A stretch of DNA of 64,000 nucleotides from Phycisphaeraceae bacterium (GCA_020639235.1 JACKHC010000002.1:116841-180840); one strand, 5' to 3'; shown: positions 17,949 to 22,263, counted from the stretch's first letter. The notes: generated from the letters alone by a model not told the origin. Numbers and translations: made by a program.

Positions 17949-19109
17949 ATGTCGTACACGGTTCTGGCAAGGCGCTATCGATCGCAGGGGTTCGGCGAGG
18001 TTGTCGGGCAGGGGGCGATCGCGCGGACGCTCGAGCGGGCGATCGAGCAGGACCGGGTGGCGCACGCGTACCTGTTTGTGGGGACCCGGGGTGTTGGCAA
18101 GACATCGACGGCGCGGATTTTCGCCAAGGCGCTGAACGGTGGGTCGCCGGAGGTGGACAAGGCGATCATGTCCGGGCAGGACACGGATGTGATCGAGATC
18201 GACGCCGCGTCGAACTCGAAAGTGGATGAGACGCGGGAGCTGATCGCCAACGCGATCTACAAGCCGCTTCGGGGCAAGTACAAGATCTACATCATCGACG
18301 AGGTCCACATGCTGTCGACGGCGGCGTTCAACGCGCTGCTGAAGACGCTCGAGGAACCGCCCGAGCATGTGAAGTTCATTCTGTGCACGACGGAGACGCA
18401 CAAGGTTCCGGCGACGATTCAGTCGCGGTGCCAGCGTTTCGATTTCCGGAATCTCTCGGTCGCGGAGATTTCGGAGCATTTGGCGCAGGTGTGCAAGGGG
18501 GAGAAGGTCAAGGCGGATGAGGATGCGCTGCACGCCGTGGCGCGGCTGGCCAACGGGTCGATGCGGGATGCGCTGTCGCTGCTCGATCGGCTGATGGCGG
18601 CGCGGAGCGGGAAGGAAACGATCACGGTCTCGCTTCTGGAGGGGTTGCTTGGGTTGCCGGCGCGGGAGTCGATCGAGGGGATTGTGTCGGCGCTGGCGGA
18701 TTCGGATGCGAAGGGCGCGCTGGAGTTGTGCGACAGGTTGCTGGCGCAGGGCATCACGATGGAGCAGTTCCTAGAGTCGGCGATTCTGCGGCTGCGCGAT
18801 CTGATGCTGGTCTGTGTGTGCGGTGAGGCGACGGGGCTGGTGGACCTTTCGGGCGAGGCGCGGGAGCGGGTTGTCGAGCAGTCGCGCGGGTTCGATGAGA
18901 GCGGATTGGTGCACATGATCGCGTTGTGCGAGAGCGCGCAGCGGATGACCAAGACGAGCGCGACACCCCGCGCGATTCTTGACGCGGTGATGGTGCGGCT
19001 TGCGATGACGGAGAAGATCGCGGATGTGGCGCGATTGCTCGAGGGCGGCGCGGTGGCGGAAGCAAAGCCGCCCGGCTCGGCGAAACGAGCGACCTCAAAA
19101 AAAGCGTGA
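17949..19109 (+). CDS. dnaX: DNA polymerase III subunit gamma/tau, zero-frame (gamma-length) product
   Basis: 'LFVGTRGVGKTS' Walker A, 'IIDEVHMLS' Walker B, 'CTTETHKVPATIQSRC' sensor region. The frame ends ...TCA AAA AAA GCG TGA. Confidence 0.9.
   Translation: MSYTVLARRYRSQGFGEVVGQGAIARTLERAIEQDRVAHAYLFVGTRGVGKTSTARIFAKALNGGSPEVDKAIMSGQDTDVIEIDAASNSKVDETRELIANAIYKPLRGKYKIYIIDEVHMLSTAAFNALLKTLEEPPEHVKFILCTTETHKVPATIQSRCQRFDFRNLSVAEISEHLAQVCKGEKVKADEDALHAVARLANGSMRDALSLLDRLMAARSGKETITVSLLEGLLGLPARESIEGIVSALADSDAKGALELCDRLLAQGITMEQFLESAILRLRDLMLVCVCGEATGLVDLSGEARERVVEQSRGFDESGLVHMIALCESAQRMTKTSATPRAILDAVMVRLAMTEKIADVARLLEGGAVAEAKPPGSAKRATSKKA
19097..19103 (+). promoter_or_regulatory. candidate -1 ribosomal frameshift / transcriptional slippage site (A_AAA_AAA)
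   Basis: A7 run positioned as X_XXY_YYZ in the dnaX zero frame, two codons before the stop; the -1 frame stays open downstream. Confidence 0.5.
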
Positions 19110-19597
19110 CGGCGGAGCCGCCCCCCCCCACTCCCCGTGAGGCGCCGGCGGCCCCGCCGGGGACGACATCCACGATCGAGTCGAAATCGAATGCGAATGT
19201 AATCGCGCCCTCGGACGCTTCGTCGTTGGCGGAGATGTGGGCGCGCGTGATGGAGGCGATCGACGCGGTGCCGTCCGTATCGGTTGTTGCTGAGTCGATG
19301 CGACCGGTTGAGCGGAAGGGGTCGACGCTGCGACTGGCGAAGCCGACAACCGGCGTGCGGTTCTCGGAGGTGCAGCGCGAGAAGCTGGAGGAGGTTGTTG
19401 AGAGTGTTTTCGGCGCGCGGATGCGCGTCGAAGTGGTCGAGGAGTCGGGTCGGGCCGCGAGCGAGGAAGCACCGGTCGAGGCGAACGAGCGAGAGGTCGA
19501 CTCCGCTGCCCGCGAGGAGGCGATGCGTCACCCGGCGGTGAAGAAGGCGGCGGAGCTGCTGGGCGGGCGATTGATTCGGGTTGAGCGGGCGGAGTGA
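19106..19597 (+). CDS. dnaX: DnaX C-terminal (tau-type) segment, in the -1 frame relative to dnaX
   Basis: Pro-rich linker, then 'LAEMWARVMEAIDAVPSVSVVAESMRPVERKGSTLRLAKP...QREKLEEVVESVFGARMRVEV', resembling the C-terminal module of full-length DnaX. Frame phase 19106 mod 3 = 2 versus 17949 mod 3 = 0. Confidence 0.6.
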   Translation: MTAEPPPPTPREAPAAPPGTTSTIESKSNANVIAPSDASSLAEMWARVMEAIDAVPSVSVVAESMRPVERKGSTLRLAKPTTGVRFSEVQREKLEEVVESVFGARMRVEVVEESGRAASEEAPVEANEREVDSAAREEAMRHPAVKKAAELLGGRLIRVERAE

Positions 19598-19622
19598 AGC
19601 GACGGGTCCACGGAGGGTTGTG

Positions 19623-19985
19623 ATGTTCGATCAGTTGAAGGCGATGGGGGCGGTAGCGGGGCTGCTCAAGGACAAGGAGCGGCTCCGCGCGATGACGGAG
19701 CAGTTCAAGGACAAGATGGAGCGGACACGGGTGACGGGCGCTGCGGGCGGCGGCGCGGTGCGCGTGACGATCTCGGGGAAGCTGCGCGTCACGGATGTTG
19801 AGGTGATGCCGGCGCTGCTGGGGGGTGCGGAAGATTCGGGGCGCGTGCAGTTGCAAAACCTGATTCTTGAGGCGACGAATGATGCGCTGGAGCGTGTGCA
19901 GGCGTTGATTCAGGAGGAAGCGGCTCGGCGGATGCAGGAACTGGGGCTGCCCGACATGCCCGGGCTCGGGAATCTGCTGGGCTGA
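19623..19985 (+). CDS. ybaB: YbaB/EbfC family nucleoid-associated protein
   Basis: 'MFDQLKAMG...GAVRVTISGKLRVTDVEV...LILEATNDALERVQ'; ATG 19623 preceded by GGAGGG; classic dnaX-ybaB-recR synteny. Confidence 0.9.
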   Translation: MFDQLKAMGAVAGLLKDKERLRAMTEQFKDKMERTRVTGAAGGGAVRVTISGKLRVTDVEVMPALLGGAEDSGRVQLQNLILEATNDALERVQALIQEEAARRMQELGLPDMPGLGNLLG

Positions 19986-20003
19986 GGGGGCTAGAGTTCT
20001 GCG

Positions 20004-20660
20004 ATGGCGAAGCAGCGGAGTCACAATCCGGATCACTCGAGCGCGTATCCCGCGCCGGTGCGCGAACTGCTCGAGGAACTGGCGCGCCTGCCGGGGATTG
20101 GCAGGCGCTCGGCGGAGCGCCTTGCGCTGCATCTGCTCAAGAGCGATGCTGCGGACGCGATGTCGCTGGCGGACGCGATCGCTCGCGTGAAGACGGAGGT
20201 GGGCCAGTGCCCGGTGTGCTTCAACTTCACGGACGGTGATGCGTGCGCGGTATGCCGGGACGAGCGGCGCGACCCCTCGATGGTGCTGGTGGTTGAGCAG
20301 CCGCGGGACTTGATTTCGCTGGAGCAGACGGGGATGTACCGTGGCGTTTATCATGTGCTGCTCGGGCGGATCAGCCCGCTCGAGGGCGTGAGCGAGGATG
20401 ATCTGACTATCGGCGCGCTGCTGGCGCGGATCGATACGCCGGAGCGGAATGCCGGGGGGGCGCGGGTTGAGGAAGTGATTCTCGGGCTGAACCCGACGCT
20501 GGAGGGGGATGGGACGGCGCTGTATCTGCAGCAGGCGGTGGCGAAGCGGGGCGTGAAGGTCTCGCGGCTTGCGCGGGGATTGCCGACTGGATCGCAGTTG
20601 GAATACGCCAACAAGGCGGTTCTTGCGGATGCGATTCTGGGCCGGCAATCGGTGCGTTAG
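20004..20660 (+). CDS. recR: recombination protein RecR
   Basis: HhH 'LPGIGRRSAERLA', zinc finger 'CPVCFNFTDGDACAVC', Toprim 'VVEQPRDL'. Confidence 0.93.
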   Translation: MAKQRSHNPDHSSAYPAPVRELLEELARLPGIGRRSAERLALHLLKSDAADAMSLADAIARVKTEVGQCPVCFNFTDGDACAVCRDERRDPSMVLVVEQPRDLISLEQTGMYRGVYHVLLGRISPLEGVSEDDLTIGALLARIDTPERNAGGARVEEVILGLNPTLEGDGTALYLQQAVAKRGVKVSRLARGLPTGSQLEYANKAVLADAILGRQSVR

Positions 20661-20721
20661 CGCGAGGTGACGGGGGCGGACGGTATAGTTGCCGGCGGCA
20701 CGGACGCCCGAGGGATAGCGC

Positions 20722-22263
20722 ATGCGTTTTGACACATCCCAGCACATGAAGATGGGCCAGCAGATGAAGCTGGCGCCGCGGATGATCCAATCGATGGAGA
20801 TTCTGCAGATGGCGCTGCCCGCTCTGGAGGAGCGGATCGAGCAGGAGCTGGAGTCGAATATCGCGCTGGAGACCTGGGAGCCGGGCGCCGACACGCAGAC
20901 GATTGAGTTGGAACGCGCCGAGCGTGATCGGGCGGATCGGGAGAATGAGCGCGAGCTGACGGTAGAAGACGGCGGGGCGGGTGACTTCGAGCGGCTCGGC
21001 TCGATGGAAGCGGACAATCCGGAGGCGTTTGACAACGAGTACTCGGCGGCGTCGTTGCATGCGCGGCAGTCGCTCGAGCCGGGGTCGTACTCGCCGTCGC
21101 GGATGGCGGGCGAGCGCGACGCGAAGATGGATGCGCTTGCGAATACGGCCGCGCCCGCGAAGTCGCTCACGGACCAGTTGCTGGAGCAGTGGTCATTCGC
21201 GGAGGTGGACGGCGCGACGCGGGAGGCGGGGCGGCTGCTGATTCAGAATATCGATGACGACGGGTACATCCGGGCGGACCTGGAGCAGATTCGGGAGTCG
21301 ATCGCCGATGAGCGTGCGCGGCCCAGGCTGGAAGCGCTCGAGCGGGCGTTGACCGCGCTGCAGATCTTTCTGGACCCGCCCGGGCTTGCGGCACGCGACC
21401 TGCGGGAGAGTCTGCTCTTGCAGTTGGACGCGATCGAGGAGGCGGACCCGCGGGCGGATGTGAGTGCGATTCGCAAGATCATCGAGGGGCATCTCGATGA
21501 TCTGACGCACAACCGGATTCCGCGGATCGCGGAGAAGACCGGGATGAGCATCGAGGAGATTTCCGAGGCGCTGGCGCATGTGCCGCGGTTGGTGCTGCAT
21601 CCGGGGCGGACGCTCGTGAACTCGATGCTTCCATCGATCATTCCCGATGCGATTGTCGAGTACGACGAGGACGGTGATGACTACATCGCGTACCTGACAG
21701 ATGGTCGGATGCCGAACCTGCGGATCAACAAGGATTACGCGACGCTCGTGAAGGATCGGGGGTTGGCCAAGCAGGACCGCGAGTTCATCCGGACGAATCT
21801 GTCCAACGCGAACTGGTTGATCGATGCGCTCAACCAGAGGCGGCACACGCTGCAGCGCGTGCTCAATGCGGTGGTCGCGGCCCAGCGGGATTTCTTCGAT
21901 CTTGGTGAGCAGGCGCTGAAGCCGTTGCCCATGACGCAGGTCGCGGACCAGCTGGGGATTCATGTCGCGACGGTGTCGCGGGCGGTGGCGGGGAAGCACA
22001 TCCAGTGCCCGCGGGGGATTTTCCCCCTTCGGCGTTTCTTCACGGGGGGTATGCAGACACAGGGCGGGGACGAGGTCTCGTACGACGCGATCAAGGCGGC
22101 GCTGAAGGATGTGATCGACGAGGAGGACAAGTCCAATCCGCATTCGGATGATGCGCTGGTGAAAGAGCTCGAGAAGAAGGGGATCGACATCGCGCGACGT
22201 ACGGTCGCGAAGTACCGGTCGCAGCTGGATATCCCCAGCGCGCGGCTACGGAAGAAGTTCTAA
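20722..22263 (+). CDS. rpoN: RNA polymerase sigma-54 factor
   Basis: N-terminal region I 'LKLAPRMIQSMEILQM', HTH 'QVADQLGIHVATVSRAV', RpoN box 'ARRTVAKYR'. Confidence 0.9.
   Translation: MRFDTSQHMKMGQQMKLAPRMIQSMEILQMALPALEERIEQELESNIALETWEPGADTQTIELERAERDRADRENERELTVEDGGAGDFERLGSMEADNPEAFDNEYSAASLHARQSLEPGSYSPSRMAGERDAKMDALANTAAPAKSLTDQLLEQWSFAEVDGATREAGRLLIQNIDDDGYIRADLEQIRESIADERARPRLEALERALTALQIFLDPPGLAARDLRESLLLQLDAIEEADPRADVSAIRKIIEGHLDDLTHNRIPRIAEKTGMSIEEISEALAHVPRLVLHPGRTLVNSMLPSIIPDAIVEYDEDGDDYIAYLTDGRMPNLRINKDYATLVKDRGLAKQDREFIRTNLSNANWLIDALNQRRHTLQRVLNAVVAAQRDFFDLGEQALKPLPMTQVADQLGIHVATVSRAVAGKHIQCPRGIFPLRRFFTGGMQTQGGDEVSYDAIKAALKDVIDEEDKSNPHSDDALVKELEKKGIDIARRTVAKYRSQLDIPSARLRKKF

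Follow-up and report, generated by a model that had tools for sequence, protein, structure and literature searches.

In Escherichia coli, the dnaX gene carries a -1 frameshift cassette made of the slippery heptamer A_AAA_AAG, an upstream Shine-Dalgarno (SD)-like stimulator and a 3' stem-loop, and the shift produces the short gamma subunit. In Thermus thermophilus, tau is templated by the gene itself and gamma results from transcriptional slippage on a run of nine adenines (A9). Tau is the subunit that links the polymerase to the clamp loader. Here we describe the dnaX gene of a 64,000-nt stretch of DNA from Phycisphaeraceae bacterium (GCA_020639235.1 JACKHC010000002.1:116841-180840), referred to below as the window, within which all coordinates are counted. 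The topology of this gene appears to be the reverse of that of E. coli: normal reading would yield the short gamma, and full-length tau would be obtained only through a -1 slip of the ribosome. From the comparative sequence data, the probability of this reading is estimated at about 0.8.

Reversed dnaX genes have been published for Chlorobi, Bacteroidetes and Verrucomicrobia (Antonov et al. 2013, PMC3711429; Atkins et al. 2016, PMC5009743), in both cases in Nucleic Acids Research. Antonov et al. reported the reversed organisation in 17 genes from 12 genera, mostly with A10 runs, and attributed it to transcriptional realignment (PMC3711429). Their dataset comprises two Planctomycetes genomes only (PMC3711429). 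Atkins et al. described the reversed form as a case of probable ribosomal frameshifting in "many fewer bacteria" and mentioned an unpublished candidate from Chlorobium phaeobacteroides with an A7 run and E. coli-like signals (PMC5009743). The literature was searched both for recoding of dnaX in Planctomycetes and for later studies of the reversed type; these two papers alone were returned, and an earlier description elsewhere is possible. The reversed arrangement itself is thus already published, and its occurrence in Planctomycetota (Phycisphaerales) is the addition made here.

Reading frames and products of the window locus

The dnaX locus of the window is composed of the following features:

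17949..19109, + strand: dnaX open reading frame (ORF) in frame 0 (ORF1), 386 aa, covering clamp-loader domains I-III; read normally, it gives the gamma-like product
19097..19103, + strand: slippery heptamer A_AAA_AAA (X_XXY_YYZ in frame 0); proposed -1 shift site
19104..19109, + strand: 6-nt spacer GCG TGA; a single sense codon, then the frame-0 stop ending the gamma-like product
19103..19597, + strand: continuation in the -1 frame (ORF2), 164 codons and a stop; tau-specific part with Pro-rich linker, predicted folded core and conserved C-terminal motif
19110..19159, + strand: predicted 3' stimulatory stem-loop, 5' arm 19110-19122 with 3' arm 19147-19159
19623..19985, + strand: ybaB/ebfC (YbaB_DNA_bd, E 2.4e-16), downstream neighbour bounding the -1 extension

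ORF1 matches the Pfam families DNA_pol3_delta2, DNAX_ATPase_lid and DNA_pol3_gamma3 as well as TIGR02397 dnaX_nterm (390 bits). Its 3' end reads ACC TCA AAA AAA GCG TGA, with the stop at 19107-19109, and the A7 run begins at codon position 3, on the third base of TCA, which makes it an in-phase A_AAA_AAA. The -1 frame, at offset 2 relative to ORF1, is open from 18983 to 19597; past the run it continues AGC GTG ACG GCG GAG CCG ..., giving the protein ...KK SVTAEPPPPTPRE...LIRVERAE*, and the predicted junction peptide of the fused ORF1-ORF2 product is ...TSKKSVTAEPPPP. Sequence and frames are therefore as described in a first-pass annotation of this DNA, in which dnaX was said to be split at the in-phase heptamer with the -1 frame open to 19597. 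The same annotation took the -1 frame for a tau-type C-terminal module, and the matches of ORF2 to models of full-length tau are indeed confined to the C-terminal part (NF011526 positions 421-575 of 578, E 4.7e-10); against Pfam DnaX_C, ORF2 scores 18 bits, below the cut-off. The fused product of 549 aa gives end-to-end alignments with three curated models of tau, NF004046, NF011526 and NF011512, covering positions 1-564 of 567 in the first with 443 bits for a cut-off of 400. Both parts are homologous to DnaX.

The A7 run had also been called conspicuous at this GC content. It is the sole A run of six or more in 64 kb of 65% GC DNA, and it does not exceed chance: the expected number of A7 runs in the window is about 0.64, and at least one was found in 42 of 100 shuffled sequences. 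The significance of the run rests on its position, phase and conservation and not on its mere presence.

The following course of events is proposed. In normal reading, a ribosome would pass over A_AAA_AAA (19097-19103), incorporate a single alanine and terminate at the TGA, releasing the 386-aa gamma-like subunit. The GC-rich stem located 6 nt past the heptamer (19110-19159) would delay a fraction of the ribosomes, and in these the two tRNA-Lys could slip back by one base on A_AAA_AAA. The slipped ribosomes would then read the -1 frame (AGC GTG ACG ...) as far as 19597 and produce a 549-aa tau carrying the linker and the polymerase-binding C-terminal module. That the shift takes place on the ribosome, how efficient it is and that both products are functional is what we infer.

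With E. coli dnaX the locus shares the gene, the position at the domain III/IV boundary, an X_XXY_YYZ motif with Lys codons and a stop within a few nucleotides, and, at the level of its clade, an SD-like tract ending about 7-11 nt upstream and a predicted stem-loop about 6 nt downstream. It differs from E. coli in that the shift would make the long tau instead of the short gamma, the A-site codon is AAA instead of AAG, the window has no SD-like element and no Rfam match was obtained. With Thermus dnaX it has in common an A run at the same boundary and two products from one gene; unlike in Thermus, tau is the product that needs the event, the run is of 7 and not 9, its phase is conserved and a 3' stem is predicted. 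In frame organisation the locus resembles the type of Antonov et al. 2013: adjacent ORFs in a -1 relation, a poly-A junction at the end of domain III with the gamma stop directly after it, a recoding event needed for tau, and a frame break whose position and direction are conserved among relatives. The published reversed cases named in the two papers are mostly A10 and argued to be transcriptional, whereas the run here is A7, the host belongs to Planctomycetota and the clade comprises G_GGA_AAA and C_CCA_AAA heptamers together with SD-like and stem-loop elements.

Conservation of the junction in Phycisphaerales

Scans of genomes and metagenomes for DnaX provided 160 loci which, after deduplication, comprise 74 distinct junctions with a short frame-0 dnaX, i.e. 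about 50 clusters at 90% identity. An in-phase X_XXY_YYZ heptamer is present in all 74, as A_AAA_AAA in 62, G_GGA_AAA in 6, C_CCA_AAA in 2 and an A9-A10 run in 4. Exactly one sense codon precedes the stop in 68 of the 74, the stop itself being TGA, TAA or TAG, and the codons that flank the heptamer vary freely. Complete -1 extensions could be delimited for 64 junctions and range from 71 to 309 codons; 51 of these 64 end, just before ybaB, in the motif P-[LVAI]-[VI]-[KRQ]-x3-[DE]-x-[FL], for example DPLVKSVLDVFEGEIKRV or, in the window, HPAVKKAAELLGGRLIRV. As read from these sequences, the reversed dnaX cassette is kept across the Phycisphaerales clade. The inverted topology pointed out by the first-pass annotation, with an unshifted gamma-like product and a tau that needs a -1 event, accordingly holds for the frames of the window and for the conserved split in its relatives. 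Two exceptions were noted among the relatives: L003 (1397-1421) has five sense codons before the frame-0 stop, and L126 has an A7 run but no detectable 3' stem, its best 3' hairpin reaching only -4.6 kcal/mol.

The extension also evolves as a coding sequence. Compared with relative L081, ORF2 shows 34, 24 and 70 differences at -1-frame codon positions 1, 2 and 3, respectively, and the third-position bias in this frame is found with the relatives L081, L082 and L083. From this bias it follows that ORF2 is coding sequence under selection in the -1 frame.

Sequences flanking the heptamer on both sides recall the stimulators of E. coli dnaX. Upstream, complementarity to the anti-SD sequence has a sharp maximum for 7-mers whose first base lies 13-16 nt from the heptamer: 50% of the junctions reach -6 kcal/mol or lower there, as opposed to 3% at control positions. 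In 48 of the 74 junctions, a GGAG or GAGG has its end 7-11 nt ahead of the heptamer, and genes within the window are themselves preceded by SD-like sequences at their starts. Downstream, hairpins anchored 4-8 nt past the heptamer have a median of -28.5 kcal/mol in the clade, against -21.8 kcal/mol at control positions of the same loci (p 1.7e-12), and the modal spacer between heptamer and hairpin is 6 nt. The window stem begins at precisely this distance, with a minimum free energy (MFE) of -36 kcal/mol and 12 GC pairs in two helices (19110-19115/19154-19159 and 19117-19122/19147-19152) separated by an A/C mismatch (19116/19153). The MFE structure pairs with one another two elements that had been proposed as separate local hairpins, GGCGG-AG-CCGCC and CCGGCGG-CC-CCGCCGG; neither can form in that way, as each would have a loop of 2 nt. 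In relatives, sequence-based alignments recover the same outer stem; the inner pairs show compensatory changes (GC<->AU and GC<->CG), and loop lengths differ widely. By sequence inspection, L083 has an apparent A-U pair at the position of the window mismatch and L081 an apparent U-G wobble in the inner helix. No Rfam family, the curated DnaX frameshift element (RF00382) among them, matches window positions 18900-19400 when E values as high as 10 are admitted.

Ribosomal frameshifting and its alternatives

The form of the slip site bears on the question of which machinery shifts. Of the 62 A-type sites, 50 have a run of exactly A7, and in all 62 the phase is the same, with the run starting at codon position 3; such a constraint argues against polymerase slippage, which would leave the phase free. 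The six G_GGA_AAA and two C_CCA_AAA junctions have the same phase, stop distance and flanking elements as the A7 junctions, and in a rough tree each of the two forms has at least two origins. These heptamers permit tandem tRNA re-pairing but lack the homopolymer that slippage of a polymerase would require. That the heptamer form is kept despite base swaps favours the ribosome over the polymerase. Together with the SD-like tract and the 3' stem found across the clade, the heptamer thus points to -1 ribosomal frameshifting as the probable mechanism, in preference to slippage by RNA polymerase. The first-pass annotation had left the choice between a -1 frameshift and the insertion of one A by RNA polymerase; the comparative data favour the former and make the latter less attractive. 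The four A9-A10 short forms, which cluster in the tree with A9-A10 long forms, look like a separate, Thermus-like class of polymerase slippage; in the A10 TGA lineages L125 and L130 the anchored hairpins are weak (-4.9 and -9.6 kcal/mol).

Several observations weigh against the ribosomal interpretation. The window lacks an SD-like tract upstream of the heptamer and has GAAA where its relatives L081 and L082 have GAGG. Its stem, in a context of 65% GC, is not significant by shuffling (z -1.55), and the argument relies for this reason on clade-level controls and alignments. There, the covariation of the stem is modest, and its base, which is invariant, may owe part of its constancy to the coding sequence. 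The junctions share a phylogeny, and the counts given above are not counts of independent events. Some slippage of polymerase is possible on an A7 run, and an A8 mRNA would encode the same protein. Finally, the clade is enriched in hairpins that come to an end 0-4 nt before the heptamer (median of -10.3 kcal/mol, compared with -5.3 kcal/mol), and in the A7 lineages these could stimulate polymerase slippage through the nascent RNA.

Programmed transcriptional slippage is the main rival, and an unlikely one. RNA polymerase would add one A on the A7 run, and the A8 mRNA would be translated normally to tau, as in the Thermus or Chlorobium-A10 type, possibly with a nascent-RNA hairpin just 5' of the run as helper. 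The protein product would be identical to that of a ribosomal slip. Slippage was argued for in reversed-topology poly-A dnaX genes, shorter runs included (Antonov et al. 2013, PMC3711429), and relatives with A9-A10 runs exist in the sister group. However, the cassette is unchanged in the G_GGA_AAA and C_CCA_AAA lineages, and constancy of phase and length is as pronounced as described above. The run of the window is of 7, compared with the 9 reported for efficient unaided slippage by Atkins et al. 2016 (PMC5009743). The hairpins enriched just before the run recall the one located 5' of the motif that stimulates slippage in the Roseiflexus IS630 element (same source, PMC5009743), but they are equally enriched in the lineages devoid of homopolymer, and the corresponding region of the window (19057-19096) folds at control level, -5.7 kcal/mol. 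The stem that is conserved is found on the 3' side of the site, at ribosomal spacing. A role of the upstream hairpin as stimulator of polymerase slippage was not adopted, since the window has no such hairpin and lineages in which slippage is implausible show the same enrichment. In the 30-40 nt upstream of the sites of L087-L166, these hairpins often embed the SD-like tract.

A truly split gene is much less probable still. ORF2 would then be a separate polypeptide, started by translational coupling at GTG 19106, which overlaps the TGA. The GTGA overlap does exist in the window, and gene callers give ORF2 as a separate protein of 163 aa. In the other junctions, however, the position of this GTG is mostly CTG, CTA or ATA, and a check for a separately initiated product revealed no conserved start codon for ORF2: over 20 codons of the -1 frame, 46 of the 74 junctions are devoid of ATG, GTG and TTG. 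A split gene would also leave the conserved in-phase heptamer unexplained, and a C-terminal module detached in this way would be unable to hold polymerase and clamp loader together.

A sequencing or assembly indel in the homopolymer, or a recent pseudogenising frameshift, is effectively refuted by the sequence comparisons: homopolymers are classic sites of indel errors and an A8 or A5 would yield a single continuous ORF, but three further assemblies of the same species from other samples (L084, L085 and L086; SRR14234062, SRR15882951 and ERZ27309175) all read A7 with an identical junction and an identical ORF2 protein, the relatives keep the in-phase heptamer and the frame split where an uninterrupted dnaX was looked for, the frame break is common to the 74 distinct junctions from many studies and environments, and purifying selection acts on ORF2 in the -1 frame.

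The tau extension and dnaX in other Planctomycetota

Searching the PDB with the ORF2 sequence gave chance-level matches only. An AlphaFold model of ORF2, built on a 5-sequence alignment, is of mediocre confidence (mean pLDDT 64), and Foldseek with this model returned no match at E <=0.001. The top seven Foldseek matches are weak (E 0.007-0.04) and include the C-terminal chains of E. coli tau (5fkv_E, 5fku_E and 2aya), DnaA domain I and DciA, the latter two being folds similar to the tau C-terminal domain. The predicted fold is consistent with tau domain V without being decisive.

Two kinds of tau extension can be distinguished. In the subclade of the window it measures about 164 aa and has a predicted folded alpha/beta core; elsewhere it measures about 100-125 aa. 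The short-extension lineages (L001 4140-4463, L002 4131-4502 and relatives) have a Pro-rich linker and the terminal DPLVKxVLDxFEG motif only. A tblastn search of L001-L003 with the ORF2 of the window gave no match. Taking this failure as a sign of non-conservation was dropped, as the frames of L001-L003 display a shorter Pro-rich -1 extension that shares the terminal motif alone. In the window linker, a C9 run (19121-19129) encodes PPPP only in the shifted frame, five codons past the slip site, and 23 of 70 junctions have a PPP within 25 codons. With one ribosome stalled at the PPPP of the window, a trailing ribosome would sit roughly on the heptamer.

Outside the reversed clade, dnaX is continuous in Gemmata, Sedimentisphaerales, Tepidisphaeraceae and other Planctomycetota, and in almost all of these genes the same boundary is marked by an A7-A10 run in frame, the -1 frame being closed by a stop 1-11 codons past it, i.e. 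the arrangement of E. coli or Thermus. The loci with a continuous dnaX and an A run are L004-L017, L153, L154, L162 and L164, to which the protein cluster P0023 can be added. Gamma may be produced by frameshift or slippage throughout the phylum, and the long-form relatives with A9-A10 may work in the Thermus-like manner. Because the boundary run is found in nearly all continuous genes, the slip site looks ancestral in Planctomycetota. At least three flips of the topology are suggested by the tree, one each in the main clade, L003 and the A9-A10 group. The presence of both topologies within one phylum supports the idea of selection for making tau and gamma, via whichever route a one-base change allows. 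The natural exchanges between A_AAA_AAA, G_GGA_AAA and C_CCA_AAA constitute comparative evidence for the ribosome in a reversed dnaX gene, where the opposite was argued for poly-A sites in the 2013 paper (PMC3711429).

The frame break has a consequence for annotation. More than 100 public protein clusters of Phycisphaerales, many of them named "DNA polymerase III subunit gamma/tau", have 373-420 aa, i.e. gamma length (P0005-P0123), and among the 120 matches listed none of these gamma-length clusters spans the junction. The sole full-coverage match among those listed is P0023, a continuous long-form relative. Tau thus appears to be systematically missing from the annotations of the clade: its specific part is absent or listed as an unnamed ORF, and Phycisphaerales genomes seem to lack tau.

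If ribosomal frameshifting is correct, an essential protein that depends on it would offer a natural system for studying how efficient a required shift has to be. A wider proposal, which we consider unlikely, is that across the order essential tau relies on an efficient -1 ribosomal frameshift and that translation, by its state, sets or regulates the ratio of tau to gamma and hence replisome assembly. The inputs could be the supply or modification of tRNA-Lys and a PPPP stall pushing the trailing ribosome onto the heptamer, and the enriched upstream hairpin in which the SD-like tract is embedded could serve as a second element of tuning.

As for the surroundings of the gene, no tRNA gene was found in the 64-kb window. 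Long C or G homopolymers are present elsewhere in it (C10 at 5975, C8 at 36558 and 40804, and several G7). The succession of dnaX and ybaB is also found in L082-L084, and the longer order dnaX-ybaB-recR-rpoN (window 17949-22263) is kept in these same close relatives, L082, L083 and L084.

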